Shown here: piece after piece, positions 1-61,907 of the stretch
Layout of the letters: each line of letters opens with the position of its first letter
How positions within the stretch are numbered: position 1 is the stretch's first letter
IMG/VR virus record: IMGVR_UViG_3300001528_000192
Coordinates: 1 to 64,000 of that record
Length of the DNA stretch: 64,000 nucleotides
DNA from: a virus
Lineage: Duplodnaviria > Heunggongvirae > Uroviricota > Caudoviricetes
Reading direction: 5' to 3' (one strand)
Made by a program: the position numbers and the translations under genes
The notes under the pieces: generated by a model
The model's database searches: none
Seen by the model: the letters and a program-made list of their open reading frames with translations, nothing else
Told to the model about the DNA's origin: nothing

Positions 1-750
1 CTCACCTCCTGCACACATGACACTGTGTTCAGTTGCCGGAACTGTAGCTGCTACTAATTCCTTAGTAACATCTGCGTTGTAATAGTGCTCTACTGCCTCA
101 ATAGCTGGAATTGTTTCACTACCACAGAAAGAAGTCATGTGAGCCATACCAGAGATAACTGCTGCATCAAGACCAGCCATACCTCTCATTGAGAAGTCAT
201 GACAAGCGAAACCAAGATTTACGTCCTCTGGGAATCCAGTCTTCTTAGCGTGTTCCATGAGTCTCTTCTTATAAAGACGAGCACTTGTTGCCGAAGTACA
301 AGGTAGCCAAAGGGTGCAACTAATCAGAGTCTCCAAGTAATTAGTTAACCAGAAGAAATCTGGAAGAGTATTCTGGATAGTCATCATAGGAACCCTTATA
401 GGGCAAATAGAACCCTCAGGAAGAGCCTTAATCTCTATAGGGAGATAACCCAAATCATAAAGCTCCTCGATGTGCTTAGTTCCAACTTGGTTGAGGTCCA
501 CGAAGTTACCTACGCGGTAAGCAAACTGTTTGATTGCCTCATCCTTAGGCAATGCAAACCACTTATTAAATTCCTCAATTAGATACTTCTTTACAAAGTA
601 CTGAATACCAAATACTACAGAGCCTTCTGTAGCCTCTGGAAAGTAACGGCAACTTCTTGGAGTCCAGTTACTGTAAACCATTTGTGTACCTTCTGGGTAC
701 ATACGATGATGACCAAGCTTATAGCCATCAGTTGCATTAATAATTTCCAT
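1..750 (-). CDS. nadV: Nicotinamide phosphoribosyltransferase (NAMPT/NadV-like), C-terminus outside the window
   Basis: Minus-strand translation from the ATG at 750 reads MEIINATDGYKLGHHRMYPEG...LPIEIKALPEG...ATEHSVM. This matches conserved NAMPT blocks (ATDSYK, LPIEIKAVPEG, AAEHS). The frame stays open to the window edge. Confidence 0.8.
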   Translation of the reverse strand, partial: MEIINATDGYKLGHHRMYPEGTQMVYSNWTPRSCRYFPEATEGSVVFGIQYFVKKYLIEEFNKWFALPKDEAIKQFAYRVGNFVDLNQVGTKHIEELYDLGYLPIEIKALPEGSICPIRVPMMTIQNTLPDFFWLTNYLETLISCTLWLPCTSATSARLYKKRLMEHAKKTGFPEDVNLGFACHDFSMRGMAGLDAAVISGMAHMTSFCGSETIPAIEAVEHYYNADVTKELVAATVPATEHSVMCAGGE

Positions 751-880
751 TAATCTTCAAATTTATGTTATTACTAAATTTCCTCTCTAGGATCTACTTC
801 TACAGAGGAATACTTTGTCATTAAAACTGAAAATACGGCTAGAGCCACAAATATTCCCAACACAATTAAAAATCCCATAT

Positions 881-1300
881 TTAATCTCCTATTCTTTTAG
901 AAGCTGTAGTTGCGAGTTTGTCACAGTACTCATTCCATTTATCTCCATTATGTCCTTTTACGTGTTGAAACACAATATTCGGACACAACTCAGACACACG
1001 AGTATATTGTTTATCAAACTCTTCCCACAACTTCACGTTTTTACTTCTTTTCCAACCCTTAGTTGCACATCCTATGCAGTACATACTATCAGACACAATG
1101 GTCAAATTATCAATAGGTTTAGTGATACATTTAAGCCCAGTGATAATTGCACCTAATTCCATCTGATTATTAGTAGTATGTTTGTACATCTTTGAGTACC
1201 TAAGGATTAACTTATCATCCTTTAAAAATACTAAACCAAGTCCTCCTTGGTCTAGCTTAGATGAGTATGCGCCATCAGTTATTAATTTATAACTAGACAT
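881..1300 (-). CDS. rnhA: Ribonuclease HI
   Basis: The ORF-track protein carries TDGAYSSK...GGLGLV, ELGAIITGL and VKGHNGDKWNEYCDKLA, the RNase H catalytic signatures. It ends with a TAA stop. Confidence 0.85.
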   Translation of the reverse strand: MSSYKLITDGAYSSKLDQGGLGLVFLKDDKLILRYSKMYKHTTNNQMELGAIITGLKCITKPIDNLTIVSDSMYCIGCATKGWKRSKNVKLWEEFDKQYTRVSELCPNIVFQHVKGHNGDKWNEYCDKLATTASKRIGD

Positions 1301-1751
1301 GTATAAAACGAGCGTTAAGATTATCCTTCTCTATAGGACATTCTCCATATTTTGACTCTATTAGAATTTTTTGTTCATTTAGCATCTCTTCTAAATCTGG
1401 AAGGTCTTCATCCTCATCCTGTACATATAAAGATTGCCAGTTGAAGCCTCCCATATCTTCTAGTATAATTCCTCTGATTTCTTCCCTAATATGGTCTGCA
1501 AAGTCATAATATCCTATCCTTATTTCTCCTGCCTTTCCTTTAACCTTTACATAAATCTCATTAGGATTCACTCTTGTAAAGCAAACTAACTTATCATTGT
1601 AGAGCACTGGTTTTATCTCTGTACTCGGAACAAACAGCTCTGTTAATACAAGGTCATCAAAGGTTGGTTCAATAGATTTAGGAGTTTTGACTATGTATCT
1701 CTCGAAGGGATAATACTCATTAATCACGTTTATAAATTCCTCGTCTGCCAT
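1293..1751 (-). CDS. Hypothetical protein, standard code, terminates with TAG
   Basis: 152-aa ORF in the standard code. Its stop codon is TAG (plus-strand cta at 1293-1295). Its 3' end overlaps the rnhA start by 8 nt. Confidence 0.6.
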   Translation of the reverse strand: MADEEFINVINEYYPFERYIVKTPKSIEPTFDDLVLTELFVPSTEIKPVLYNDKLVCFTRVNPNEIYVKVKGKAGEIRIGYYDFADHIREEIRGIILEDMGGFNWQSLYVQDEDEDLPDLEEMLNEQKILIESKYGECPIEKDNLNARFIHV

Positions 1752-1756
1752 ATTAC

Positions 1757-1796
1757 AAAAAAAAAAGGCTTCTGCAAGAAAATTCTCACAGAAGCC
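1757..1796 (-). terminator. Rho-independent terminator (8-bp GC-containing hairpin followed by a T10 run on the minus strand)
   Basis: On the plus strand, an A10 run at 1757-1766 precedes ggcttctg...cagaagcc. On the minus strand this is a hairpin followed by T10, placed right after the stop of the 1807..2157 gene. Confidence 0.55.
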
Positions 1797-1806
1797 CTAA
1801 ATAACC

Positions 1807-2112
1807 TTAAGACTTGAGAAAATTTACTACCTTCTGTAATTTGTCTGCATCCTGCTTCTTAAAGATAAATTCGTCAAAGTGCCCAAACATGCACCTATAT
1901 CCGAATATATACTTTATAGAGTTCCAAATGCGTTTCCAGAAAGAATCTGGAACCAAATGTACTGACACATAGACATCCTTATCTTCATCGTCTGAAAAAT
2001 ACGAGAAAATAAGTTGATGTTCTACGTTATTACACTGACAAATAAATAACTCATTAGTTGAGTCATTACAAGGTACGATAATCTCTTCGTCTTTTACCTT
2101 TATATTTTCCAT
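1807..2112 (-). CDS. Hypothetical protein (start trimmed to the internal Met so it does not overlap tRNA-Trp)
   Basis: The ORF-track ORF 1807..2157 overlaps the tRNA at 2131-2202. The internal start MENIKVK at 2112 avoids the overlap. Confidence 0.45.
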   Translation of the reverse strand: MENIKVKDEEIIVPCNDSTNELFICQCNNVEHQLIFSYFSDDEDKDVYVSVHLVPDSFWKRIWNSIKYIFGYRCMFGHFDEFIFKKQDADKLQKVVNFLKS

Positions 2113-2130
2113 ATTGCTAAACTTAGTTAG

Positions 2131-2202
2131 CACACCCAGAGAGAATCGAACTCCCATCTGCGATTTTGGAGACCGCTAGTTTGACCATTAACCTATAGGT
2201 GT
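2131..2202 (-). tRNA. tRNA-Trp (anticodon CCA)
   Basis: The minus-strand sense sequence is ACACCTATAGG...GCGGT CTCCAAA ATCGC...GGAGTTCGATTCTCTCTGGGTGT. It has a 7-bp acceptor, a T-loop TTCGATT, and an anticodon loop CU-CCA-AA. Confidence 0.75.
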
Positions 2203-3603: not shown

Positions 3604-4197
3604 TTACTCAGTTTCTTTTTCATAATAGCATACTAAAGTATAAGGATGTAATATACCCTCTTTTTCAAGTTCATAGAATAATTGCTCAAATACTATTATT
3701 CTCACAAATCCTAAATTGAACTCTGTTTTTGAGGGCTGCTTCCAAGTATATGGACACTCTGCGACATAGCATAATTTACCATTAATAACTCGCATTTTTA
3801 AGTAACAATAGTTTAGTAGAATAGCTGCATTTTTCTCTTTTGAGTTAATTGCATAATCTTTATTGCCATTCCAAGCCATCCTACCAAGCTCATTGTCCTT
3901 AAATCTTTGTCTTATCTTTGGAGACAACCATTTATTGTTATGTATAAACAGGGTATCCTGTTTGGTTAACATCCTAAAATTAGCATACCCAGCATCAGCA
4001 CAGTATAGACTTCCAACGGTATATAAACCTGCATGTAATGTCAATATGCTAGCTTTTTCATATAAACTGATTGGAATATTTTTATCTATTTTGTTAACAG
4101 TTTTATACTGATAGCTAACTAAATAAAAAATTCCATTTGCGATACTAATTATCACTATGATAACTAATATCTTTAATAATCTCTTTAACTTTTTCAT
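3604..4197 (-). CDS. Hypothetical protein with an N-terminal membrane anchor
   Basis: 197-aa ORF. The N-terminus KRLLKILVIIVIISIANGIFYLV is a transmembrane helix. The start ATG overlaps the stop of the upstream recoded gene (ATGA). Confidence 0.6.
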   Translation of the reverse strand: MKKLKRLLKILVIIVIISIANGIFYLVSYQYKTVNKIDKNIPISLYEKASILTLHAGLYTVGSLYCADAGYANFRMLTKQDTLFIHNNKWLSPKIRQRFKDNELGRMAWNGNKDYAINSKEKNAAILLNYCYLKMRVINGKLCYVAECPYTWKQPSKTEFNLGFVRIIVFEQLFYELEKEGILHPYTLVCYYEKETE

Positions 4198-5456
4198 TTT
4201 TTATCTTTATTGTTTCTTTGTCTATTATATTCTCTTGCCCACTTATTTAGTTGCTCAGTGGGAATATTAGTAACGTCAGAGTGCCTTTTAGTGTCAACAC
4301 CCCTCAAGGCTGCAACAGTTTCCATTATCGGCTAAATACCCTTGACTCCAGCTTTTTTAGCATCAATGCCTGCCTTTACTGAAGAATAAAGACTGCTATT
4401 TCCCTCTCCATCTCCTAACACTTGAACTACACCCACCTTTCCATTTGGTTTTGTTCCCCACACATTGTTGAATGTGTAGTTATCTCCACGAGAGTAAAAT
4501 CCATCTTTATCAAATCCAGTTCCGGCGGACTATCCGTAAATGTTGTGATACGGAAGGTTTATTGCATTTTTAAACTAATCAGAAACCCTCTCCCAGAATC
4601 CTCTATCATCCTTATTCTGCCCATGGAATGATGATCCAGAATCCCCGTGTTCCCCACCTAAAGCACTATGTGCGGAATCGGTTATACTTCCATCTCCACC
4701 ATTTGCTAAATTATACAAAGAAGCTGCAACAGCTTGTCTCTCAGTTCCCTCCCCTAGATCAAATATAGTATGACCATGAGGGTTTAAAAGTCCTGCTACA
4801 TAATTCCCTGCAACATTGTGAAAGTTGTTGATACGACGAACAAGAGGTGCTTTCTCTCCACCTGACTTATAAAGCCAATCAATAAAGTCTTGATTCTACT
4901 TTACATCATCAAACGTTGTCTTATCAGAGTTATTTCTCCAGTTATTAAAGGCATTATAGGCTCCCTCTGTAGTCCCTGTGATAGCAGGCAACCCTACAAC
5001 ACCAGCTGCAATAGTATAGCCTAACCTCTTCTTACGAATTTTACTCGCCCCCTGTGAAATGAAAGGTTTCATAGCCTCTTGCCTAGCCTTTAGAAGAGCT
5101 AACTTATTTGCATCTCCTCCAAATTCCATAGCACCACTCTTGTAAACCTTAGTAGCTTTATCAGAATTATTCTTCATCCACTCAAGCTCTGCTTTAGAGG
5201 CAGCACTTCTCATGGCTTTAGCATCCCTAATAGCCTATTTCTTTCCTTCAAGATTTGCATCTCTCATTTTCTAAGTAGGTCTCCAACTACTCTTCTGTTG
5301 CAATATTCTCTATTTTGCTAGTTTATTTAACTGCTTTTCAGCAGCTGCTTCACCTGTGAATATTCTTCTCAACCCATTAGATGCCAACTTAGCTTTATTT
5401 GCAAGTTTACTAAACTAGAGAATTGCGCCTCTCTATGCTTTATTAATTTGTGCCAT
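4194..5456 (-). CDS. TAG-recoded gene, hypothetical protein (about 420 aa with TAG read as Gln)
   Basis: ATG at 5456 to TGA at 4194-4196 is exactly 421 codons, with 8 in-frame TAG. Translation with TAG=Q gives a continuous protein (…AMRSAASKAELEWMKNN…SAHSALGGEHGDSGSS…) containing ORF-track fragment 4896..5213. Confidence 0.5.
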
Positions 5457-5466
5457 TTTTTTTTTA

Positions 5467-6381
5467 TCAATATCCAAACTACATCTTTCTCTAATAAATA
5501 GAGAACAAACTGTTCGGGTCATACTATGATGCCCATGTCTAGGCTACCTTATCAAAGGCATCTTGGGTTTGTTGTCCCCATTTTCCATCAGCATTTATAC
5601 CTAATTTCTACTGAAGCTCTTTGACTGCTTCGGGACTATTATATCCAGCTTTAGCGGCACGGTAGTCAAATACACTGTCATAACCACTGTTATGAGCTTC
5701 CATAGTATCATCAGCTGTACCTACAATTTGCCCAGTTTGCTTATTATAGATATAACCATTACTACCTTGAAGATATTGGTCTGGGGTTAGCCAGTTAGAA
5801 CCATCGTAATAATTGGTATTTCCAAACCTGTCAACACCAAATCCCTGTTGCTAGTCTTCATATTGTCCAGTTTCCTAGTTGTATTCCTGCCAACCCTTAT
5901 TAGGATCGTACATATATTGCTGAGGAGTTTCTTCAGCTACGTTAGTAGACGCAGGGCTTCCAGAAAAAGCACTGTAAGTTCCAAGCCCAAGAGCTCCGAG
6001 AGTTCCTACTGTAGATAGTCGCTTGATTCCTTTGTTTCTAACTTGACGGAAAGCATCTTGAGTAACCTACTCCTTAGTTCTAGCAAGATTCTCTCTCGCC
6101 CCAGCAGTTATATTGGCAGCATCACTAAGCCTCTTTTGGTTCCTTGCACTGCCTGGATTCTTCCATTTTGCGGATCTACCTACAAGAGCCTTTTCTGACT
6201 GTCTAGCTGCCTCTAGTCCCTATCTAGCCTCTGCCAATTCTGGAGAGGCTTGCCTTAATTCAATAACCTTCTTATTTCCGCCACCTAATCTAACCATTAG
6301 TTGCTTAGTTTTATTTGGCAGTAATCGGAGTCTCTAGGTTGCTTTATCAACTCCTTTTCTTAATCCTTCTCCTTTTCCCAT
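5467..6381 (-). CDS. TAG-recoded gene; the protein has a C-terminal peptidoglycan-binding-like domain
   Basis: ATG at 6381 to TGA at 5467-5469 is exactly 305 codons, with about 11 in-frame TAG. The C-terminus reads ...VKELQ[Q]KLGINADGKWGQQTQDAFDKV, which resembles a PG_binding_1 domain. Confidence 0.5.
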
Positions 6382-6385
6382 AATA

Positions 6386-7423
6386 TTAATTAGTTGCTAA
6401 GTCCCACATTGTTCCAATGTTTCCAGTGAAACTATTATCCCTAGAACTTAATATGTTAAAATCATTATAACTATCTCCTAAGCTATTTTTAATGTCTGCC
6501 TCCGAAGCTCCCTGCTTCCTAGCCTGCTTTACCTAATTGAATAAAGGCTATAGTTGCTGTTTAGTATTCTTAACATCCTAGTAACCAGTATAAAGACTGG
6601 ATCCTATTTGAGGCATATCATACATTAGCTTAGCATTTAAAGCCCAATTAGCCGGTCTTTCTACTTTACTAAGTACCTTTACACCTTTCCCTACTGTATT
6701 AGCAGCTCTTGCTAACTTTGTAGCCTATAGACCTACCTTTAAGCCTCGTCCTATATTTCCTATGAAAGGAATGGCAAAGACAGCATTCATCGCTGCTTCT
6801 CCCCAATCTCCCCTTCGAGCTGCATTATATGCATCTCCTGCTGCCATAGCATTTCCAACTCCAGGAATAAAATATCCAGCAGTTCCTGCTAGGTCTGAGA
6901 CTGTAGAATTGGCATGATACAATCCAGTTTTATCTCCTAGCCACTGAATTGCCTTACCTCCAATTGATTCAGCTTCATCAGTAGGCTAGGCACTTTGAGA
7001 CTTATTTGGTTGCCACCTTTTCTATGGTTGAGACTATCTAGCCCTTTTCTCATCAGATATATTCAAATAAGTATCCCTGTTATCAAAGGGATTTCTCTAT
7101 ATATAGTTTCCGTATTGATCTCTTCTGGCTCCAGCTGCTTTAGCATTTTCATCAAGTCTAGAGTTAGCCTCACTCCAACTGGCAGTTCTTCCCTCTTTAG
7201 AAGACCTAACGTCATTAAGCCTCCAACGACCATTCTAGTATATATTTCCATTCCTAGTGTTCATAGAGGTTCTATTTGCATAATCTCTACCATATTTACT
7301 AGCTAAATATCTCCAAGCAGCTCCAGTTATAGGACGCCCTTTCTAAGCAATTTTATTGCCATTCACGTCTCGGTAATATCCATCCTTACCGAGCCACAAT
7401 TTACTCATATCAAAGTTTGCCAT
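6386..7423 (-). CDS. TAG-recoded gene, hypothetical Gly/Ala-rich protein
   Basis: ATG at 7423 (MANFDMSKLWLGKDG) to TAA at 6386-6388 is in frame over 346 codons, with several TAG. It contains ORF-track fragment 6725..6922. An A/T-rich tract lies just upstream of the start. Confidence 0.5.
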
Positions 7424-7728: not shown

Positions 7729-8730
7729 TTACTTGATAGTAACTGTTGCTACACGACCACTAGTTATGTCAGTAACACCAGTTCCGATACAGTTCTCTAC
7801 AATTACACCATTTCCAGTTAAGAACTTAGAAACAGCTTCCGCACGCTTCTCAGATAACTTCTGATTATATTTAGAAGAACCCTCTGGAGATGCAGAACCA
7901 ATAATGCTTACTTTAGAACCAGTCGGAATCTTTGATAGTTCTGCCATAGCAGTTCCAGTAAGTTCTGAAGAGTTTTGAGCAAAGAACACTACTGTGTTAC
8001 CAATTGTATTAGTAACAACCTCGGTCTTAACGACTTCCTTTACAATTTCTGTAGGTTTCTTTGCCAAATCCTTCTTGAGAGAATTAATTTCATTGTTCAT
8101 TGCAGCAATATCGTATGCCTTAAAACTTCTAGTACCATTAGAAGTCTTGAAGTGATATACCCATCCAACCAAGACACCAAGCTGAGCATAATTCTTGTTG
8201 AACTCTACATGACCAGTCTTGTTCAGATTCCAATATACCGCAGGATTGATTATAACTGAATGAGCCCTCTCCTTACCAAGATTAAAAGACAATATTGCTC
8301 CAGTCTTAGAGGTGATATAATTAGAATGCCCAGTCCAGCTATGAAGCCAGCCAATACCAGTCTCAGTGCTTACTTCAAATTTGCGAGGAGTTCCGTTGTA
8401 TCCACACAATAGGTTAGAGAGATTAATAACTCCATTTAACCCAGTATTGATAGACTTTACTACAGTAGAAGCGCTACCATAGTGATTATCCCCGAAGGAA
8501 GCAAGTCCTTCAACGTTAAACCCGAACACAGGAGTAAGATCCTTCTGCAACTTAATGCCAGCAACTCCATTTATAGGGAATACTGAATTAAAGTCTAAAG
8601 GAGTAGTTGCTCCACCTACAACACTAATAGAAGTGTTATCAAGGATTTTAGATTTCTCATACGCTGTTTGTGCATAGGTAAAACTACACAGAGTAAACAG
8701 CAAACTCATGATGAAAATAAATTTCTTCAT
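7729..8730 (-). CDS. OmpA-family outer-membrane protein (signal peptide, beta-barrel-like N-domain, OmpA C-domain)
   Basis: The signal peptide is MKKFIFIMSLLFTLCSFTYAQ. The C-terminus reads VVFFAQNSSELT...IIGSASPEGSSKYNQKLSEKRAEAV, the OmpA/MotB peptidoglycan-binding signature. Confidence 0.8.
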   Translation of the reverse strand: MKKFIFIMSLLFTLCSFTYAQTAYEKSKILDNTSISVVGGATTPLDFNSVFPINGVAGIKLQKDLTPVFGFNVEGLASFGDNHYGSASTVVKSINTGLNGVINLSNLLCGYNGTPRKFEVSTETGIGWLHSWTGHSNYITSKTGAILSFNLGKERAHSVIINPAVYWNLNKTGHVEFNKNYAQLGVLVGWVYHFKTSNGTRSFKAYDIAAMNNEINSLKKDLAKKPTEIVKEVVKTEVVTNTIGNTVVFFAQNSSELTGTAMAELSKIPTGSKVSIIGSASPEGSSKYNQKLSEKRAEAVSKFLTGNGVIVENCIGTGVTDITSGRVATVTIK

Positions 8731-39746: not shown

Positions 39747-39763
39747 AGTACATATTTAATTAG

Positions 39764-39835
39764 TCGCCCCACTCAGACTCGAACTGAGACGTGCGGTTTT
39801 AGAGACCGCTGTGCTAACCATTACACCATAGAGCA
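39764..39835 (-). tRNA. Amber suppressor tRNA, anticodon CTA (reads UAG); tRNA-Gln-like body
   Basis: The sense sequence is TGCTCTA TG GTGT AATGGTTA GCAC A GCGGT CTCTAAA ACCGC ACGT CTCAG TTCGAGT CTGAG TGGGGCG A. The 5-bp anticodon stem pairs perfectly and the 7-nt loop CU-CUA-AA puts CUA at positions 34-36. The D-arm TGGTGTAATGGT is almost identical to that of tRNA-Gln(TTG) at 29860-29930. Confidence 0.8.
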
Positions 39836-40394: not shown

Positions 40395-41275
40395 TTAAGA
40401 TTTAAACTTACCTCCATTTTTAAGAGTAAATCCCTAACTAGTCCAACTTGGGACAGTCTAAAGGTTGAAATCTAATAGTTTGGGTTTCCTAAAGAAAGTT
40501 AATCCAACGTTACCAGGAGATACATCATCAACTACTATACTTCCATTGGTATATGCTCTATATTGTACGTTAGGATCGTTAACTTTTCTAAAGCCACTCT
40601 TCTACATAGCCTTATCTAACTTATCTACATATTTTGGAAAAGTTTTCTCACTGAGAACTTTCACCTTTTTCTAAATGAAAGTTGGAAATCTTCTAGTCCC
40701 ATCCTTCACATAGCCTACAAACTTTAGAGGGAGAGAGTTTGGAACTGCATTTCTCTTTAACATTTCACCGCTGCCAACCTAAGTTATTTTTCCCACAGTA
40801 GTAGGAGAGTTTCTTATTACAAGGGCTTCAGAACCCTATCCTATTTTATAAGGGGTTAAAGTAGATAACTTACCAACTGTAGCCCGCCTAGTAACAGCCG
40901 GAAGAACACCTTTAAAGGAACTTACAGGTCCTGCAGTTATAAGAGAAGTTCCTATGTTCTTTACATTATCTTTAGCATAATTAAAATTGGACTATATCTT
41001 CTACTAGTCTTCTTCCTTAGAAGGGTCATAATGAGTTTGGCGTCCAAATATTCCATATCCAAAGAAATTGTTATTGTAGAAGTTCTACATATTCTAGTAA
41101 TACTTAGCTTTATCTGCATCATAGATTACTGCTTGATTCTTTCTAGCAGCCTCCTACAATTTTCTCTATTTAATTCTATCTTGCTATTCTTTAGTAAGTT
41201 GGAATGCCATTGGTTGACCTCTAACAACTCTTGTATTATCCTATACTGCAATCCCACCTCTCTAAAACTTAATCA
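40395..41275 (-). CDS. TAG-recoded gene, hypothetical protein (about 293 aa, about 17 in-frame TAG)
   Basis: ATG at 41275 (MIKF[Q]RGGIAV[Q]DNTRVV...) runs to TAA at 40395-40397. The translation is coherent only when TAG is read through. Its start overlaps the stop of the upstream small membrane protein gene. Confidence 0.5.
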
Positions 41276-41490
41276 TGCATTTTACCTTTCCAAATTCCAG
41301 TTACTGAATCTATACCTAATAATAAGCATACTGCATATATAAAAGGTTCTATCATTAGAGGGGCCTGAATAGAAGATATAGTACAATAGACTAATACAAA
41401 GATGATAATAAGGAATCCGATTACCCCACAAACTCTCTTACTACTAATACCAGAGTGTGAGGTAATCATCAGTCTAAGAAAATCCTTCAT
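41269..41490 (-). CDS. Small membrane protein (holin-like, 2-3 transmembrane helices), no TAG
   Basis: 73 aa, reading ...VCGVIGFLIIIFVLVYCTISSIQAPLMIEPFIYAVCLLLGIDSV. Confidence 0.45.
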   Translation of the reverse strand: MKDFLRLMITSHSGISSKRVCGVIGFLIIIFVLVYCTISSIQAPLMIEPFIYAVCLLLGIDSVTGIWKGKMHD

Positions 41491-41522
41491 AAAATTAAAA
41501 GTATAATTATTACCTAGAGTAG

Positions 41523-41714
41523 CTATCCTATAGCTCCACCTATCATAGTAGCTGCTATGTCTAGCCAGTCAAACTTACCTCCATACTGTTTATCTTTAAA
41601 TTCCATTCCAAATGCACATCCTAATACAGCTAGTATAGTAAATACTAACCCAATAGGAATTGCATATAAAAGATGTTTCGGACGATTACTTTCTTTCAAC
41701 CACATATTATGCAA
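41523..41714 (-). CDS. Small membrane protein (holin-like), no TAG
   Basis: The protein reads ...LLYAIPIGLVFTILAVLGCAFGMEF...WLDIAATMIGGAIG, which gives two transmembrane helices. Confidence 0.45.
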   Translation of the reverse strand: MHNMWLKESNRPKHLLYAIPIGLVFTILAVLGCAFGMEFKDKQYGGKFDWLDIAATMIGGAIG

Positions 41715-42819
41715 AATTTAATTTATTTCCGAAGAACCAATTAGCCTCCAATTGTCTTCTCTTTATAAGTCCTTTCTATATCTTACCATTACCTCTTGCT
41801 GTAATACCTGCCCTAATCCACTTATTATAAATAGCTTGAGGATTATTCCAGTTCTGAACAATAAATCTTCCAAACTCTCCATTTGGGCTAGCCCAATTAC
41901 CAGAGGCTGATATAGAAGATAATGCATCTATTTTATCCTAAGTTACATTAGGTAATCCTGCTAGCACCTGTTTCCATTCTTCAGCCTTCTTATTATAGAA
42001 GGCATTAAAGATGTTGTCCCATCTTTCTTTAGAAAACCTAGTACCTGCCTTTATAGGTGGAGCCCCCGGTTTATCAAATTCTCTAGTCATGCCATATGCA
42101 CCAGTAGCAAAAGATTCTCCAAACTATGTATTCACTTTAGCAGTTTGGGATCCCCCTTCCATCCTTTTAATTTGGGAAGCCATCTGCTAAGATATACCAT
42201 TAGCGAATGTACTAATGCCGTTGGTAACCCCTCCCAAGATTCGTCTAATACTTTTGATTTCTAAGTTAGGAAGGGGTCTTTCTACTATTCCTAACTTCTT
42301 TCCAGCAGCATCTATAATATATATCTATCCGCTCTCTATTCTACTTATAAGTCCTATGTGCTATCCACTAGGACTATTCTTACTTCCAAACCAGATTACA
42401 TCTCCAGGCTTAGCCTATTGAAGACTAATTTCCTAACCTATCTTACCCTACTGAGCAGCAGTCCTAGGTAGATTAATTCCTACACTATTAAAGACATACT
42501 TTATAAGACCACTACAATCAAACCCAGAACTTGGACTAGAACCTCCCCAACTATATTTACCTCCTAAGAATTGTCTCGCTTGGTTAATTACCTACTAAGC
42601 CATAGAAGAGCTATTCTCAGATTTAGAAGGAGAATAACTGAAGGTAGGTTCTTGTATATCCTACTAAGGAGTATCTAGGAAACTCCAATCTATGCCGGAA
42701 TCTTCTACGTCCTAAGTAGGCTATTGCATTAATTGTATTTCCTGATAATTCTACTATACATCAGGGGTAATTATGTCTGGAGGAGATACAGATTCAAATG
42801 TTGTAAATAATTCAGCCAT
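41706..42819 (-). CDS. TAG-recoded NlpC/P60-family cell-wall peptidase (endolysin-like)
   Basis: With TAG=Q the protein reads ...QFLGGKYSWGGSSPSSGFDCSGLIKYVFNSVGINLPRTAA[Q][Q]GKIG...PGDVIWFG...[Q]HIGLI, the NlpC/P60 Cys/His core. The two consecutive TAG codons sit where the family has Gln-Gln. The end coordinate is approximate because my manual frame count is off by one somewhere. Confidence 0.55.
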
Positions 42820-42821
42820 TA

Positions 42822-43646
42822 TTAAAATTTATATAATCCATTTATAATATCACTAAATAATATATGAGGAATTTCGGGATTTTCCTAATCAAGAATAGAT
42901 TTATAGGAAGTCGCTAATTTCTTTCCATACGGATTCTCATATGAATCATTTATTAAGATGTGACTAATATTTCCTTCTGGCTATCTCATGTCCCTAACAA
43001 TAATAAATGGTCCATCAGAATAAAAACCACCAGGTGCAGCAGTACTAGTTTTATCCCCGATTAAACTGCTAGAGTAAAAAGGTCTGGTAGTATCGTATCC
43101 ATGCTTATTCATCATCCTAGCAACAGCTAAGGCTTCTGAATCTCCCTATTTAGACATGCCGTGTCCTACATAGTGTAATGGAACTCTCTACCTTTCAAGA
43201 GCCTGCTTCAGAAATTCTCCCTGCATAAACCTATCATCTTTATTTATACCTCTTCTAAAATCTAGCATATTTTTAGGAGATATTTTAGTTCGGTCAATAA
43301 ATCCCTATAATACTTTCAAATACTCCCCCTTTGGCACTAATTTAATTGCTTTTATAACTCCTCCTAGCTGGTGTTTCCAAGTTCTGGCATTAGCAGCAAA
43401 TGTAGCTCTTTTCCTAATCTTAGGATCAGAACTATTTTTTCCCCTCTAAATGCAGACATCAGTTACATTTCCCCCACAGTACTCTGTAAATTTACCTCTA
43501 TTCTATTTTTTAATATGTATCTTATGTCCTTTCTTGTAAAGCTCAATTGGATCTGAATAATTCTCTAACTTTAAAGGGAGATTAAGCTAAGAAGTATCCT
43601 TGAAAAACTAAGAAAACTCTGTTAATTGATTCTAGGTATATTTCAT
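42822..43646 (-). CDS. TAG-recoded gene, alpha/beta-hydrolase-like protein
   Basis: ATG at 43646 (MKYT[Q]NQLTEFS...) to TAA at 42822-42824 is exactly 275 codons. It contains HYVGHGMSK[Q]GDSEALAVA, a G-H-x-x-S nucleophile-elbow-like motif, and about 14 TAG. Confidence 0.45.
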
Positions 43647-43814
43647 ATTAGATTTTGTTAAAAGTAACACATACTTTATTTGAGTATTCAAATTTAATAT
43701 TTATATTTGTATAATTGAAATGAATATAACTCATAAGTTAAATAGAAAATTCCACGTATAAATATATTTGTACAAACTCAAGGACTAACAGATTAACTAT
43801 ATAATATCTAACAA
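43647..43814. promoter_or_regulatory. AT-rich divergent intergenic region (probable divergent promoters for the minus-strand lysis cassette and the plus-strand late module)
   Basis: A 168-bp gap of roughly 80% A+T lies between the divergently oriented genes starting at 43646 (minus) and 43815 (plus). Confidence 0.3.
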
Positions 43815-46198: not shown

Positions 46199-47572
46199 AT
46201 GGCTAATAATTGGAAGTATGGGGATTCCTACTTTGATGGGAACTCTTATAAAACAAGAGCATAGGCGTTTGCTGCTGCTAGGAAAAGTGGTAGAGGAGTA
46301 TTTACTTATAAGGGAAAGCAATATAATACAATGTAGAAAGGGGAAAATGCTGATGACTTTAGAAGGAATCATGCAGACTACGACTATTTCCTTGGAAATG
46401 TTGCTAGTGACTAGGGAGGATGGAAACCTTCTGATCCAGTTCAAACTTCTTATAAAGTAAATAATGTTCCAGAACCTATGAATCCAGACGCCTCACCAAA
46501 ATCTGGACAGTTAGGAGAGGCTGTAGTTACAGCTCAGAAGCAGCCACTACAAATGTTTACAAAAGATGATATTAGATCTCTAGGATTTAATAATTACTAG
46601 GGATTACTTAATGCAGTAAGCAATAGAAATAATTGGAACAATAATTTCGTAAAGGCTCTAAATAATAGATTTGGAACTGATTATGCTAACTGGAAGCAGG
46701 AAGACATAGAAAATGCATTAGGAGTGAAGGGAAAGTATAGATCATTTGGGGGAGGAGACTTTGGAGATATGTCTCGCAGTATGGCAAGCTGGATGGGAAC
46801 ATACAATGGAAATCTCGAAAGGAAAAATCTGCAAGATAGAACTGGATCAGACGGGATAGTCTATTCCAATAAACAAGTAAGAGATCTATTTGAAGCACAT
46901 CCTGTAAAGCCTAAAACATTTACTTTTGACACTAATTCCTTTGGAACTAATCTATTTGGAACGCCAAAGAAATAGTAGGGAGGACAAATTAATATGAATG
47001 AACAACAATTACAATAGGCATTTCTATAGTATCTGATGTAGAAGACTGGAGCTCAAAATGAGCAGCAACTAGAACAAGTTGTTTAGCAGTTGGGTGAAGA
47101 TGGATTGAAACAAGCATACGCTCAATTCATGCAAGAAATGCAGCAATAGCAAGTTCAAGCTGCCAAGTTTGGAGCTAAACTAAATTACATTAAGAAACTT
47201 AATGGACAATGCCCTGAAGGAATGGAAATGCACTATTATAAGCAGGGAGGTAGGCTTTGCAGGAAATGTATGCAGGCTAAACAAAATGGAGGAGAACTAG
47301 AAACACCTTCTAATCCTATTGATGCCTTTAAATGTGGAAGAAAAATTAAAAAGAATCAACAGGGAAGAAAATTTCCTTTGATTGAAACTGACAAGAATGG
47401 AAAGAATAAGAAGGTCTATTATAAGGATGAGGCAACTAGAGATTCTATTGCAGCAAATCGTTACAATGATCAGGAAGTGCAAGTAAATAGACCTGGCTCT
47501 TACAAGAAGAATGCAAAGGGCAAGGTTCAATGGACTCCTGATAGAACCAAGGCACCTTATAAGAGAGACTAA
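46199..47572 (+). CDS. TAG-recoded Gln-rich protein with a C-terminal zinc ribbon
   Basis: ORF-track fragments 46724..46975 and 47222..47572 share the frame of the ATG at 46199. Reading TAG=Q gives ...NEQQLQQAFLQYLMQ...QFMQEMQQQQVQAAKF...CPEGMEMHYYKQGGRLCRKC. Many Gln residues are TAG-encoded, interleaved with CAA/CAG. Confidence 0.5.
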
Positions 47573-47698
47573 TCTTACATAGGAATGAATATGAATTAAT
47601 GAATTATGGTTTAGGATATATTTGTTTACAACAATCAACTCAATAGAGTTGATCTAAATACACATGAAATACTTCTGGTCAAAGAGTTTAAAGCTCTT

Positions 47699-48193
47699 TT
47701 GGAACCAAATAGAAATAAATGCAAAGAAGACCCAAGTGGATTAATGGGTCTTCGTGCATTTAGAGAGTTCACTTATATATGGCTTGCCATATGTTGGAAG
47801 TCTGTGTATAGTGAATATGATGAACAGGTTAGGCACCAAGAGTCCCTAAAGGATGCAAACTTAACAGAAGAGGAATTTAATAATCCAGAATTTAGAGCAG
47901 CATGTAGGAAGTTTAGGCAGATATAGGAGTCTAATCTTTCCATTAAAATGCTACATGCTGCACAGGAAACTGTTAACAAGTTTATAGAATACTTTAATTC
48001 AGTAGATCCTTTAGAGAGAGATGAGTAGACTGGAAAACCAGTATATAAAGTTAAAGATATTATGGCTGAACTAAGTTCTTTAGGAAAGGTTCATGACGAA
48101 CTTGTTGACTTGGAGAGTAGAGTTAAGAAGGAGTTAACTGAACAATCTTCCGTTCGAGGAGGGGCTATAGATGGATATCAACCTAACTTTTAA
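47699..48193 (+). CDS. TAG-recoded hypothetical protein (possible small terminase position)
   Basis: MEPNRNKCKEDPSG... continues through two TAG to TAA at 48191-48193. It lies immediately upstream of the large terminase gene. Confidence 0.4.
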
Positions 48194-50463
48194 TGGTTAT
48201 GGAAGAAGTTAAAAGGAAAAGAGGACGACCTAAAAAGGTTAAACTCCCAGAGGAAATAAAGACTTTGGTACAAGAAGTTAAGCAAGAATAGAAACCAGAC
48301 TTAATTAAAGTAGAGGAATCTGTTCCAGAACCAGAAAAATCTTCAGAGTGGGACGTTCCAAAGGGGGAATATATAAAATTCTTCGATAAAAGGCTTTCTT
48401 ATGAGCTAACAGGCTATAAACCAATTACTGAAACTTAGGGGTTGGATTTTGATCCAAGTTGGTTCACCGTTGCAAGGGATACCTACATAAGAACTGGAAA
48501 GTATTGTAGCTATAGAATATACAGTAAACCTTATAATGATTTCTGGCATGAAGAATACCGTAGATGTCGAGAAGGGTATACTGTAAATGGATATACTTTA
48601 ACTGGTCCAAACTATTATTACCTCAACTACTATCAACTTCCTAATATTGATGTTGAAATAGCAGGTAGTGGACGTAGTTAGATATTTCCTAAGTTCTTGG
48701 TATTTCAGTATGAGTTCTTTCACTACTTTGAGATATGTAGAAGGGAGAAAAAGGATGTATGTTTAATGAAGTCCCGTGGTATTGGATTTAGTGAAATAAA
48801 TGCTGCCATTTGTGCATGCATTTACAATTGCTTCAGAAATAGTAAGTGTATGATTACCACGAGTTTATCTAACTATTTGGAGAAATCTCTTGATAAGGTA
48901 TGGAATGCACTTAGTTTCGCAAATGAACATACTTAGGGAGGACTTGCTAAACTTCGCCAGGCTAAGGACACATAGTTCTTAAAAAGAGCATCTACTTTAG
49001 TAAAGGATTCAAATGGTATAACATCTGAAACTGGATGGATGTCTTAGATTGAAGGAGTAGTAGCTGAGACTGATGCTAAGATAAGAGGCGACCGTATTGA
49101 TTTACTAGTATATGAAGAGGCTGGTTCTAATTCAGTCTTAAGAAAATCATACATTAAGGGAAAAGCCCTTATATATATTGGAGGTACTAAGTTTGGAATT
49201 AGACTTGCGGGAGGTACTGGTGGAGATAAAGGTGCAGCTTTATAGGGACTTAGAGATATATACTATGACCCAAATGGATTTGACGTCCTTCCGTTTTATC
49301 ATAATTATACAGAGGGTGGAGAATGGGTTTATACTGGATACTTTATTCCATCATACATAGGTGCTATTACAGAGTACGGTACTGATATTAACGGAGTAAG
49401 ACGACAATTACTCGATAAAAGAGGCTATTGCTTATGGAAGAATTATAAGGAGTAGCTAGATTTGGATAGGGCTAACCTTTCCTCTAATCCTAGAGCATTA
49501 ATTGATCACTCTGCTGAGTATTGTTACACAGCAGAAGAAGCGTTTGCTTTGGAAGGTGATAACAAATTCAATAAAGTAAATATTGCTGAATAGCTTACAA
49601 ATATACGTGCATTGAAGAAATGTCCCCCTATAGAAAGAGGTTATATTGAATATAAATTCAAGGATGGAGCCCATGTTTAGTAGAATATAGATGGCTTCAA
49701 GTGGATTCCTAATTAGAGTAGTAAACTCTAGATATTAGAACACCCAATATGGACTTTGCCCCCAGTTGAGGACGAGAACGGAAAAGTAACTTGGAGACCT
49801 CCTACTGAAAAAGTTAGAAATTTATATGTAATAGGAATAGATGGTATTGATATAGGCGCAGCCCAAACTTCTGAAGCTACAAAGGATCCATCAGACTTTT
49901 GCCTTGTTGTTTACAAGAGAGCATATGGAATGGAGGAACCAAAATTTGTAGCACTTTATAAGGATAGACCTAATGATGTTAGGGAATGCTATAAGATAGC
50001 TATTAAACTAGCATAGTATTATAATGCTGTTATAAATATAGAGGCAACCAGATAGAGTATAATCCCATATGCGAGAGAGAGAAAGCTTCTTAATCTCTTT
50101 ATGAAGAGACCTAGGGCTACTCTTGCAGACTCTGCTAGGAATACTAATAAACAGTATGGAACTCCAGCAACTCCAGCAATTATAGATCATCAAACAGATT
50201 TAATAGCTGATTATATAAATGACTATTGTCACCTTATATGGTTTGATGAAATGCTTGATGAGTTCAATAGGTATACTGATGAGAATAAGAAGAAATTTGA
50301 TATTGTTGCAGCAACAGCAATGGCTTTGTTAGCAGATGAGGAATTGCAAGGAACAGTACCTAAAGTTGTAGAGGAAGTCAAGGATACCTGGCAAGATATA
50401 GGATTTTACACAGATGAATATGGAAGAAGGCGCTATGGAACACTCCCAAAACACGCTTCTTAG
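48193..50463 (+). CDS. terL: TAG-recoded terminase large subunit
   Basis: Five ORF-track fragments (48442.., 48697.., 49756.., 50101.., all with start%3==1) fuse with the ATG at 48193 when TAG is read through, about 13 TAG in total. Motifs are KSRGIGFSE (a deviant Walker A typical of terminases), DLLVYEEAG (Walker B) and VIGIDGIDIGA...DPSDFCLVVY (the RNase-H-like nuclease domain). Confidence 0.7.
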
Positions 50464-50494
50464 ATACGATTTAATAATAATTTTGGATAGTTAT

Positions 50495-50803
50495 ATGACG
50501 ACTTAGGACCTAGAACAAGTAATACAAGACTATATTCTGGATATTTATCATAAGAAATATATAGGTAGAATGGTCATAGAGAAACTAAATCCAGTAGGAT
50601 ACTGCATTAAGCTAGGGATGGATCATGATCACTAGCCAATAGTTATTTACGCAGAACTAGAGGATGATAAGTTTCTTAAATTCCTCAGGCAAGAACTTAA
50701 GGATAGGCGTTTCAACCTAGTATACTATGGTAAACTATAGTTAACTTACCCATATGATTGTAATCCAATAAATACAGCATGTAGTTGTCATGACAAAGGA
50801 TGA
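50495..50803 (+). CDS. Small TAG-recoded hypothetical protein
   Basis: MTT[Q]DLEQVIQDYILDIYHKKYIGRMVIEKLNPVGYCIKLGMDHDH[Q]PIVIY...CSCHDKG ends with TGA at 50801. Confidence 0.3.
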
Positions 50804-52970
50804 ATTAATAGAGAAAACGGACAAGGCAATATCTGAACTAGTCTACCCTAAATATGATTTATAGAAAGCATATAACTACTATAATGGTGTAAGAGATTCA
50901 GACTAGTTCAGATACCTAGAGGAAGTGTATGGAGCAAATGCTCCAACTACATTACATTTCACCCCTTTAATAAAGAAACATATTGATGCCCTTATAGGAG
51001 AGTACTTAGGAACTCCTATAATTCCAAAAATATTTTGTAAGGACAGTGAAACAATAACCAATATAGATAGAGAGAAGCAATTAAAGATCGCTTCTGAACT
51101 CCATGAGTATTTGAAGAATCATCTTAGAAATTCTGTTCTCAACTTTATAGATGGAAAGAATATCAATGATGGTCTTATTGAGTAGCAACTGAAGAGAATA
51201 GTGGAAGATATAAATAATACATTTGTATCAGAATATGAGATTGCTGCATAGAACGTAATAGAATATATTATGCAATCTAGAGATACTGATATCATTACAG
51301 TATTAAGAGATCTTCTTCTAGATCTTTTAATTACTGGATATGCCTTTTATAGAGTTCTACCTACAGTAGAAAATAATAGCATTAGAATCTAGGCTCTAAG
51401 CCCATTAAATACTTTCATTGATAGAAACTTTGAATCTCCATATATTAAAAACTCTTATAGAGTTGTTGTAAGAAGCTGGATGACTAAAAACCAAATCCTA
51501 AATGAATATGGTAAAGAAATGAAAGCATCTGATAGAAAACTTTTAGATGAAAAGTGGGATTCTGTTTACGAAAATGCTATGTACTACGTCAGAATGGGGG
51601 AAACCAATGGTATTCCAAATACAGACGGTGTTCAAGCTGGAGTAGAAGTTACTCCTGGCTATCCTGATAGTAAGTCCGGACTAACTCATGAACTTATCCC
51701 CGTTTACGAAGTAGAATGGTTAGAAACTGACAAAGATTTCATAATGCAGAGATATAGAACAGTTAGAATTGGAGAACAAATCTATATACTTAGGGGGAAG
51801 GATGAAAAAGTTATGAGAACTAAATCTAATCCTTCTTACTGCAGTCTCTCTGTTAATGGTATATATTTTTTGAATAGAGGAACGAAACCTTATTCAATGG
51901 TTCTAGCCTGTGCTCACCTCCAAGATTAGTATGATCTTCTGAACTTTTATAGAGACAACCTTATTGCTAATAGTGGTACAGTAGGGGACTGGATTGATTT
52001 AACATTAATTCCTGCTGAGCTAGGTGTAAATCTTCCAGAACGACTTATAAAGTGGTAGGCTCTGAAGAAACAAGGGCTAGGAGTTCTTGATTCCTCTTAG
52101 GAGGGACGATTGGCTTCTGGGCAAGCTCCATTAAATACTATTTTTAATGGTTTTGATAATACTGTTAAAATGTAGGCTGTTCAAGCTATATAGGTAGCAA
52201 TAGATGCTATAGAGCAAACTACCTCCTCTATTACTGGAGTCTTTAGAGAAAGGCTTAATGGTATTGAGTAGAGAGATGCTGTGACTAATGTTAAAATTGG
52301 ATAGAACAACTCATTTATTATAACTAAATAGTATTATCACTAGATGGACTTAATAGTAAATGAGATGCTATTAGACTGTTTAAATCTTGCCAAAGTTGTA
52401 TTCAAGAATGGATTAACTGGAACTATTATACTAGGAGATAAGTATCAAAGAGTATTTACTGCTCTTCCTGAATATTTTACAATAACTGATCATGATATTA
52501 GGATTGTTACTAGTACTGATATTGTGAAGGATTTGGAACAAATAAAGAATATTATTCCTGAATTTGTTAAATCTGGCGGTCTCCCTCCCGACATTATTAT
52601 TGAAGCCATAACTAGCAAGAGCTTACCAGATCTTAAGTACAAGGTAAGAAAAGCTATGCAAATCTAGAAGGATGAAAATAATTAGATGTAGCAACTAAAT
52701 TAGCAAAATTAGTAGCTCTAGTAGTAGCTCTAGGAAATGTAGAAACAGTTACAGGAGGCTCAGAAGAAAGTAGAATCTCTTAATCAAACTAAACTACAGC
52801 TTGAACAAAAGCAGCTTGAATAGAATTATAAGATTGAAATGTATAAGGCTAATACAGATAGGTCTTATAAGGAGGCTACTGTTGAGGAGTAGAAAAGAAG
52901 AACTTAGGTTGAAATAGCGCAGTTAACAGATGGGAATCCTTACAATGATAAAATTAGACAAATTGATTAA
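50790..52970 (+). CDS. TAG-recoded large virion protein, portal-like by position, with a TAG-dense Gln-rich C-terminal tail
   Basis: Fragments 50925.., 51480.. and 52344.. (all %3==0) join from the ATG at 50790 to TAA at 52968-52970, about 726 aa. The assignment as portal rests only on its position after terL and its size. Confidence 0.4.
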
Positions 52971-53686
52971 TGGAACTGAAAATTAAAATAATTACTTGTA
53001 ACGCCTGTGATAATTGTAAGGTTACTGTGCAAGACAATAGCACTTATTTATCAGAGGATAACATAGGAACTGTTAAGGGAAAATTTAAATTCTCCGATAC
53101 AGTGTCTATAGATATACTTTAGCTAAACAAGTCTTAGGAATCTGTATACTTGAACCCTACATTTACTGATCATTCTTCGTTGAATAATTCTACCTTATAG
53201 GTATCTTCTGATGGATGGTATAGTCTAGTTCATATTGTACTTCCCTCTAAGGAATGGTTTAATAGAGAATTAGAAAAACAAGACGGTTCTGCTCTAGGAT
53301 TGTATAATATAGTATACTTTGCAAGCGATAATAAAGTATATAAATATATAAATGGCAGTACATCAGAAGTTGATTTATCTGAAGTACTAGAAGTAAATCC
53401 TGTAAATACAACAATTTCGAAAACATCAGAAGACTTTGTATCTATTTGTTTTTTACGAAAATGTTATATAAATTTGTGCAAGCAAATTCTAAACGATAGA
53501 GGATTCTCCTCTTGTTGGAATAAAAATAAGATAGATAGTGAATTAATATATAAAAGAGATCTAGTCTGGATGGCAATTAATGTCATAAAATATCTCACAG
53601 AGTGTGAACAGCTTGCGGAAGTTGAGAGACTAGTTGAGATAATTAATGGATGTAATGGCTTATGCTCTTCGTCTAGCTCTTCTTAG
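52970..53686 (+). CDS. TAG-recoded hypothetical protein
   Basis: MELKIKIITCNACDNCKV... runs through three TAG into ORF-track 53300..53686. Confidence 0.4.
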
Positions 53687-53890
53687 AATAGTAGTGGATG
53701 TGGATGCTCTAAATAATTTAAAGAAAAAGGTATCTGAGGAATTTTTCTAGCTCATGTGTAAAGTTAGAAAAGGATACAAACCAGACTATGAATTTATATT
53801 AGAAGAGATTTCTTTTATAGACCTAATAAAGAATAGGGAAATAGATGATAAATTATCTTTAACTGCATTATAGTACTATTTAAATAACAA

Positions 53891-58600: not shown

Positions 58601-58842
58601 CTCCGGTATTCACTGGAGTTCCTCAAGTAGCTGTATCTCCAGATGCTTCTGACTCCTCTCAAAGGATTCCATCTACTAATTGGGTTAGAGATAGGATTCA
58701 AGAGGAAGTTTCTAAGATAGATGTAACAGCATATATTACTAGAGCAGATGTGGAGAAAATGGTGGCAAAGAAAGCAGATTTAGTAGACGGCAAGGTTCCT
58801 TTGTCCCAACTCCCAGTAAATAATTGGATAGACGTAGAATGA
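55687..58842 (+). CDS. TAG-recoded large tail-fiber-like protein (about 1050 aa, coiled-coil rich)
   Basis: Fragments 55687.., 56074.., 56608.., 57943.. and 58447.. all lie in frame 1 and fuse via TAG. It has long heptad-like acidic coiled-coil stretches and a VSLSDLIDTYTAGDGLQLEDNKFSV module. Confidence 0.5.
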
Positions 58843-61906: not shown

Positions 61907-61907
61907 T

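Follow-up and report, generated by a model that had tools for sequence, protein, structure and literature searches.

We analysed a stretch of 64,000 nucleotides (nt) of tailed-phage DNA (IMG/VR record IMGVR_UViG_3300001528_000192, positions 1 to 64,000; Caudoviricetes), called the window throughout, whose left edge carries the first 250 codons of a gene of the nicotinamide phosphoribosyl transferase (NAMPT) family. Judging from sequence relationships and gene order, this truncated gene probably encodes Namat, a nicotinamide ADP-ribose transferase and the second enzyme of NAD+ reconstitution pathway 1 (NARP1), whose operon in this lineage has the order Namat, a small phosphatase and Adps, and it is most likely a counter-defence gene of a known kind rather than an ordinary NAMPT salvage enzyme. 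The distinction goes back to Osterman et al., who reported that phage operons annotated as 'Prs + NAMPT' do not make phosphoribosyl pyrophosphate (PRPP) and nicotinamide mononucleotide (NMN); the Prs-like enzyme Adps pyrophosphorylates ADP-ribose, Namat joins the resulting ADP-ribose pyrophosphate (ADPR-PP) with nicotinamide directly to NAD+, and NARP1 overcomes the Thoeris I, DSR1/2, SIR2-HerA and SEFIR defences (bioRxiv 10.1101/2024.02.11.579819). The pathway was published in 2024 and is reported in 4.3% of sequenced phages (bioRxiv 10.1101/2024.02.11.579819). In the phage studied here, a host NADase defence of the SIR2, TIR or SEFIR type would cleave NAD+ to ADP-ribose and nicotinamide, Adps, a diverged relative of PRPP synthetase, would use ATP to convert ADP-ribose to ADPR-PP, and Namat would combine ADPR-PP and nicotinamide directly to NAD+, permitting phage replication. 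Such a reading corrects the annotation (Namat, not NAMPT; Adps, not Prs) and places NARP1 counter-defence in a lineage of large, TAG-recoding, crAss-related gut phages; the core result is a modest one.

The gene starts with an ATG at 750-748 on the minus strand and is truncated by the window edge at codon 250. Its translation from position 750 to position 1 is free of stops, comprises 250 residues and starts MEIINATDGYKLGHH. The features that matter for its assignment are:

1..750, minus strand: N-terminal 250 codons of the putative Namat-type (NAMPT-family) nicotinamide ADP-ribose transferase gene (translation and profile matches)
622..663, minus strand: beta1-beta2 loop ('selectivity clamp loop'), residues 30-43, TPRSCRYFPEATEG (alignment, numbered on the sequence of Namat of phage SPbetaL1)
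25..27, minus strand: catalytic histidine codon (H242 in ...VPATEHSVMCAGGE), with eight more codons up to the window edge (alignment)
727-729 (D8), 721-723 (Y10), 184-195 (F186, S187, R189) and 34-36 (A239), minus strand: nicotinamide and ribose-phosphate contacts (alignment)

Membership of the family, which the earlier sequence-only reading had asserted for a partial gene at this edge, holds. The fragment matches PHROG 448 ('nicotinamide phosphoribosyl transferase') with an E-value of 4.4e-94 and positions 6-237 of the 465 positions of NCBIfam PRK09198 with an E-value of 4.7e-76, and its Pfam matches are NAMPT_N and the start of NAPRTase. This is far above chance, and the fragment is the N-terminal half of a NAMPT-family protein. 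Its truncation is solely a matter of where the window ends (codon 250); an intact gene of 516 amino acids (aa) is found in contigs that share the allele.

The catalytic positions that fall inside the window can be aligned with Namat of SPbetaL1. Window residues D8, Y10, F186, S187, R189 and A239 correspond to D13, Y15, F189, S190, R192 and A242 of that protein, and H242 to its catalytic histidine, so that a NAMPT-like catalytic core is present. The sole change among the aligned contacts is E212 (115-117, minus strand) in place of the nicotinamide-contacting D215, a position which corresponds to Asp219 of human NAMPT. Among related genes in which this position is readable, glutamate is found in 42 of 66 and in 74 of 74, and by these alignments Glu212 is a trait of the whole gut-phage clade and not a defect. 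The loss of catalytic residues, named in the sequence-only reading as the finding that would refute its proposal, is not seen in the 250 visible residues.

The catalytic core is common to NAMPT and Namat, and one hallmark of Namat is a clamp loop supplying an arginine, lysine or tyrosine that stacks on the adenine (PMC12774641). Such a residue is present inside the window: R35 (646-648, in PRSCRY) is aligned with the adenine-stacking R40 of SPbetaL1 Namat. Overall similarity points in the same direction. The window fragment is 52% identical to Namat of phage FADO and 49% identical to that of SPbetaL1, and the nearest solved protein to a full-length relative (98% identical) is SPbetaL1 Namat (crystal structure 9w5x), with 483 bits, compared to about 210 bits for human and rodent NAMPT. 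A second signature lies 3' of the window edge and was read in the same-allele contigs L206 and L207 rather than in window DNA. In L206 the clamp helix reads GSFTYQFKSRD, with aromatic residues at positions 3, 5 and 7 and S for T, while a true NAMPT from Xanthomonas has GGALLQKVDRD at this place; aromatic residues at signature positions 3 and 7 occur in 153 of 156 related genes. Equivalents of R306, D308 and the GD(A/S) motif, likewise 3' of the edge, are found in L206 and in other relatives.

The same-allele contigs (L206-L210) were reached via a look-up of the 116-aa protein encoded at window positions 1807-2157. Three of them (L206, L207 and L208) have the gene order of the window, i.e. 317 aa, 116 aa, 152 aa, RNase H, 34 aa and the NAMPT-like gene, and they are 99.1% identical to it over the 750 nt of the fragment and 99.6% identical over the 250 nt nearest the edge, with one amino acid difference. 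L206 and L207 extend far enough to show what follows: the intact 516-aa gene, a 142-aa HAD-type gene and a 269-aa Prs-like gene, with overlapping starts and stops. We infer that the genome of the window continues leftward as in L206, which is the best available picture of a mosaic region. Other routes to the missing part gave nothing: an exact 45-mer search of metagenome contigs for a leftward extension returned no match, look-ups of the 152-aa and 317-aa window proteins returned none either, a look-up of RNase H led only to contigs that lack the Namat cassette, and a large protein search with the 250-residue fragment yielded only fragments and more distant clusters, none of them identical.

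The Prs-like gene, the candidate Adps, sits two genes 3' of Namat in L206 and L207, and it accompanies the family widely. Among the loci collected with the N-terminal half, 76 of 80 have it no more than 6 kb from the NAMPT-like gene, as do 79 of 80 collected with the C-terminal half, and it is present in all 17 of 17 close IMG/VR relatives. The copy in L011 matches PHROG 619 with an E-value of 1e-53. A lysine matching K162, the catalytic one of SPbetaL1 Adps, is kept in L206, in the related contig L198 and in phage DAC15. Identity to the Adps proteins of FADO and Achelous is 25-29%, and in phmmer comparisons the Prs-like protein scores 61-72 bits against Adps of SPbetaL1, FADO and Achelous, compared to 47 bits against the best solved Prs. 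In L206 a ketoacyl synthase and an acyl carrier protein gene (14861-16278) stand directly after the operon.

Several points weigh against the assignment to Namat and NARP1. The decisive clamp signature and the partner genes lie outside the window and are taken from same-allele contigs in a clearly mosaic region. The nicotinamide-contacting Asp215 is replaced by glutamate across this clade. The enzymes of the gut-phage clade are assigned by comparison with assayed homologues of other phages, so that the assignment would presuppose that Bacteroidota-phage enzymes share the substrate preference measured for Bacillus phage enzymes. By sequence alone Adps is separated from Prs weakly, and the genomic context appears to be the stronger argument. 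Finally, Namat also forms NMN from PRPP in vitro (PMC12774641), and some NAMPT activity of the present enzyme may accompany its Namat activity for this reason.

One alternative is that the operon is a plain metabolic booster, in which the Prs-like protein makes PRPP, the NAMPT-like protein makes NMN and the host completes NAD+, so that more NAD+ would be available for phage replication independently of defence. This was the textbook view of such annotations before 2024, it agrees with the database labels 'ribose-phosphate pyrophosphokinase' and 'nicotinamide phosphoribosyl transferase', and both the distance of the clade's Adps from assayed Adps and the NMN-forming activity retained by Namat are in its favour. 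We nevertheless consider it improbable. For the assayed homologues it has been rejected, as they did not produce PRPP and their counter-defence effect was retained when host NMN salvage was lacking (bioRxiv 10.1101/2024.02.11.579819). The Prs-like protein, scanned in its L198 homologue, stays far under all curated Prs thresholds, reaching 62.7 bits with the best model, for which the cut-off is 113. Moreover, the conserved adenine-clamp residues make sense only for ADPR-PP, and the macro-domain ADPR-1''-phosphate phosphatase that occupies the middle slot of sister operons points to ADP-ribose chemistry.

Still less probable is a true NAMPT that forms NMN out of nicotinamide and PRPP, with a phage NMN adenylyltransferase or Nudix enzyme elsewhere in the genome completing the route (NARP2, as in phage KVP40), which is how the sequence-only reading had understood the gene. 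In its favour are the Pfam and NCBIfam names (NAMPT/NAPRTase), the shared catalytic core and the fact that the 64 kb visible are part of a genome of about 180 kb. The similarity to Namat exceeds that to NAMPT, though, the Namat clamp arginine is present, with the aromatic clamp signature in the same-allele contigs, and Adps adjoins the gene in nearly all relatives. True phage Nampt forms a separate clade paired with Nmnat, and about 20,000 phage genomes yielded no case of NARP1 alongside NARP2 (Osterman et al.). The predicted partner did not turn up: neither the 43 standard-code open reading frames (ORFs) of the window, nor 12 ORFs of one relative, nor 20 kb around the Namat gene in L206 contain NUDIX or cytidylyltransferase-type Pfam families, a search that covers 64 kb of the phage's own genome and leaves about 116 kb outside; around the L206 gene the HAD-type and Adps genes are found instead. 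The partner had been suggested to lie just upstream of the window. Both RNase H and the NAMPT-like gene are on the minus strand, however, with the NAMPT-like gene downstream of RNase H, and the DNA beyond the edge comprises the remaining 3' half of this gene followed by its downstream neighbours. What survives of the earlier proposal is the enzyme family and the theme of rebuilding NAD+ against NAD+-depleting defences, with Namat and Adps in place of the NAMPT/NARP2 route.

That the gene is a functionless remnant, truncated or interrupted in this genome, is hardly credible: the window shows just half of it, interruptions are frequent in related genes (by a group I intron, by insertions of homing endonucleases or by splits) and many database homologues are short, but the 250 visible codons contain no stop or frameshift and keep every catalytic residue, a 99.1%-identical allele is intact in three independent contigs, and the group I intron of relatives would splice back to the exact reading frame.

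The interruptions in relatives of the Namat gene are of several kinds. Directly after the codons of the clamp signature, L016 carries an insert of 222 nt without an ORF and L022 one of 1.2 kb that encodes a LAGLIDADG endonuclease; we read the two as versions of a group I intron. The Rfam model for such introns (RF00028) is matched by the insert of L022 with 59 bits and an E-value of 5e-14, and splicing predicted after the U and after the terminal G would restore the reading frame exactly. This intron was missed when Rfam was run at its gathering threshold on three whole loci and was found by a region-restricted search; no RNA family was found with Rfam at the other Namat insertion site. The coordinates associated with inserts are:

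L022 11490-11706: insert-associated segment
L016 11293-11515: insert-associated segment
L022 12148-12729: insert-associated segment

In L022-L026 (about 10730-11520) the gene is also broken immediately 3' of the catalytic histidine codon, giving two ORFs of 280 codons that each have their own start, with an HNH-like ORF between the halves in L023, and L215-L217 show another split (151 + 379 aa). Lengths of 280 or 397 residues are common among the database homologues.

The only point that may be new concerns the gene between Namat and Adps, a short way beyond the window. In L206 and L207, and also in DAC15, cr111_1 and many others, this middle slot is taken by a HAD-type protein of about 142 aa, which PHROGs labels 'phosphoheptose isomerase'. 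Coordinates in relatives are:

L206 13522-13950: HAD-type middle gene
L011 11548-11979: HAD-type middle gene
L007 7484-7912: HAD-type middle gene

For the genome of the window the gene is expected just left of the edge. The HAD motifs (DxDxT, Ser/Thr, Lys, DD) are well kept, with D29, D31, T33, K106, D114 and D115 invariant in 36 diverse members and T65 nearly so. A profile of the family finds only BT0820 (2OBB) in the PDB (E-value 4.6e-5), and the AlphaFold2 model (pLDDT 88) is best matched by 2OBB, followed by HAD nucleotidases and the phosphatase domain of T4 Pnk. Motifs and modelled fold mark the protein as a phosphatase of the HAD fold, small and capless. Its family has 2,407 sequence clusters that lack a Pfam assignment in precomputed domain annotations, and in a random sample of three distant members each was flanked by a NAPRTase-family gene on one side and a Prs-like gene on the other.

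In sister contigs (the L012 type, including L198) the middle gene encodes a 164-aa macro-domain protein, which matches Pfam Macro (E-value 1e-6) and the yeast ADP-ribose-1''-phosphate phosphatase Poa1p (6lfq; E-value 2e-6) and shares 36% identity with the phosphatase encoded by Vibrio phage Achelous, where the order is Adps, macro, Namat. In two sets of loci, which overlap in contigs, the HAD gene was present in 14 and 56 loci and the macro gene in 18 and 16, always between the core genes; the two were never found together in the surveyed loci, and they alternate between phages with Namat proteins that are 94-98% identical. In the NARP1-AP system the macro-domain protein Adpp turns the aRES product ADPR-1''-phosphate into ADP-ribose for NARP1 (bioRxiv 10.64898/2026.01.28.702374). 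Because of its position, its mutual exclusivity with the macro gene and its fold, we tentatively propose that the HAD protein may be a second, unrelated 'feeder' phosphatase that would yield ADP-ribose from one of its phosphorylated forms (ADPR-1''-phosphate or a different product of a non-canonical NADase) for NARP1, a proposal whose chances we put a little short of even. In the literature searched, which leaves many journals aside, HAD-type proteins did not come up as members of NARP1 operons. If true, the proposal would extend the idea that NARP1 operons collect enzymes returning unusual NAD+ breakdown products or immune signals to ADP-ribose, for which macro-domain Adpp and RyR-domain glycosidases have already been described, and it would imply a matching, undescribed non-canonical NAD+-cleaving defence in gut Bacteroidota.

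On the other side of the Namat gene, the window contains the following features:

751..773, minus strand: short spacer preceding Namat, where the accessory cassette has its upstream edge (blastn)
774..878, minus strand: 34-codon hydrophobic ORF MGFLIVLGIFVALAVFSVLMTKYSSVEVDPREEI between RNase H and Namat (read from the sequence; context only)
881..1300, minus strand: RNase HI, 139 aa, upstream-side neighbour (Pfam RNase_H, E-value 8e-24)
1293..1751, minus strand: acidic ORF of 152 aa that shares 8 nt with the start of RNase H (unmatched in Pfam, NCBIfam and PHROGs)
1765..1798, minus strand: terminator-like hairpin with a 15-bp stem and a T run, just upstream of the 152-aa ORF (consensus scan only)

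RNase H had been noticed beside the NAMPT-like gene from the sequence alone, and rightly so: the protein is an RNase HI with all four catalytic carboxylates (D9, E48, D71 and D127). It belongs to the replication-type gene set of the lineage and not to the NAD+ pathway. The description of this spot as the start of an early block does not agree with relatives, in which the same-strand gene run continues through helicase and DnaB genes. The 34-codon ORF ends in TAG followed directly by TAA, and a 34-aa gene is also called in L206-L208. The 152-aa ORF occurs in L206-L210 but not in L001-L006 or L011; it probably opens a transcription unit with RNase H and Namat, of which the hairpin at 1765-1798 is likely to be the boundary. 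In L206-L209 an HNH/NUMOD4 endonuclease gene follows the 152-aa gene, before RNase H; the window does not have it. A sigma-70 promoter scan gave fewer sites than shuffled sequence, the consensus being uninformative for a Bacteroidota-type phage. The annotated start of the 116-aa ORF (1807-2157, minus strand) overlaps a tRNA-Trp gene (2130-2202, minus strand) by 28 nt, and an internal methionine (MENIKV, about 2112) is more likely to be the better start.

The cassette is an accessory one. Six contigs (L001-L006) with an identical RNase H protein lack it and have genes of 104 aa and 42 aa instead; in blastn their match to the window is limited to 770-1308, with similarity ending at about 770, just upstream of the Namat start. 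Compared to L001, L011 has a 3-kb cassette in place of about 460 nt. In further close relatives Namat is preceded by a DUF5662 gene, and a few genes downstream there is another RNase H, which shares 48% identity with the first. The idea that RNase H is functionally linked to the NAD+ genes was weighed and dismissed, as the adjacency is not conserved; it is incidental, found in some strains only, and has no functional implication. The presence and absence of the cassette among strains fits an accessory set kept under pressure from NAD+-depleting defences of the host.

Mosaicism also shows at the edge itself. IMG/VR contig 3300001528_000174 (L009/L010/L198) is 94% identical to window positions 1-754 and has no similarity beyond; the first 51 nt of the window are the first 51 bases of this contig, i.e. 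both start at the same base, and the other end of the contig resumes inside the same gene at about codon 366. We therefore considered the L198 end (Namat C-terminus, macro domain, Adps) as the continuation of the window gene and rejected it because of the 94% identity over 1-754 followed by divergence, so that L198 is a relative. The shared break base lies in a 50-nt stretch that is replaced in the split variants, and a recurrent assembly break where strains with different versions of the gene coexist is plausible.

The window comes from a poorly studied, roughly 180-kb lineage of crAss-related gut phages. It contains 22 tRNA genes, including a suppressor tRNA with anticodon CTA (39763-39835). 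Genes at 46199-62630 (plus strand), 4194-7423 (minus strand) and 40395-43691 (minus strand), among them those of the large terminase (48193-50553) and the portal (50790-52970), have 6-28 in-frame TAG each and form long ORFs only with TAG readthrough; TAG thus appears to be recoded in this lineage. The Namat-type fragment and RNase H have no in-frame TAG (0 in each) and are therefore both in the standard-code gene set. The terminase is 44-47% identical to records of uncultured human-gut phages and only 26-29% identical to Crassvirales terminases, and relatives measure 170-190 kb. Elsewhere in the window, a minus-strand cluster at about 13180-18960 encodes amidoligase, glutamine amidotransferase/peptidase C26 and phiEco32-like COOH-NH2 ligase domains, and near it are a 602-aa SPFH/Band 7 protein (10170-11975), an OmpA-like protein (7732-8730) and a Trans_reg_C protein.

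Among known systems, NARP2 of Vibrio phage KVP40 (the Nampt NadV and the bifunctional Nmnat/Nudix protein NatV) shares the fold of the first enzyme and likewise restores NAD+ in infection, but it uses PRPP and NMN, needs Nmnat and has no Adps; neither an Nmnat nor another mark of that route was found here. Closer is NARP1 of the Bacillus phages SPbetaL1 and FADO and of coliphage Bas63 (9w5w/9w5x), with the same pairing of a NAMPT-like and a short Prs-like gene in one operon; the operons of SPbetaL1 and FADO have been tested experimentally (bioRxiv 10.1101/2024.02.11.579819). Common to these and the present genes are the catalytic core, the clamp-loop arginine, the catalytic lysine of Adps and the aromatic signature GS-X-phi-X-phi-X-phi-(T/S)RD, the last of these read here in the same-allele contigs. 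The differences are that the order is reversed (Namat first, Adps last) with an extra gene between, that glutamate replaces Asp215, that the signature ends in SRD and not TRD, and that Adps is only 25-29% identical; furthermore, the host is probably a gut Bacteroidota species. NARP1-AP of Vibrio phage Gary (Adps - macro-domain Adpp - Namat) likewise consists of three genes with a small phosphatase-type gene between the core genes, and the sister contigs of the L012 type have, like Gary, a Poa1p-like macro-domain gene in this slot. Unlike in Gary, the middle gene of the same-allele contigs encodes the 142-aa capless HAD-fold protein without sequence relation to Adpp, and the Poa1p-like macro gene by which NARP1-AP is recognised is missing from the operons of L206 and L207. 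The nearest counterparts are the Bacteroides phages DAC15 and DAC17 and the uncultured crAss-like phages cr111_1, cr126_1 and cr85_1 (Crassvirales, Steigviridae), which have the same order of NAMPT-like, HAD-type (about 143 aa) and Prs-like genes, with identities of 70-74% for the first gene, 44-48% for the middle one and 43-46% for the last. These phages have genomes of about 100 kb, whereas the lineage described here has about 180 kb, recodes TAG and has a terminase only 26-29% identical to theirs. In their records the three genes are labelled hypothetical, 'phosphoheptose isomerase' and 'ribose-phosphate pyrophosphokinase'. DAC15 is a cultured phage that grows on Bacteroides thetaiotaomicron, and with the same three genes it makes the idea of a HAD-type feeder phosphatase testable.

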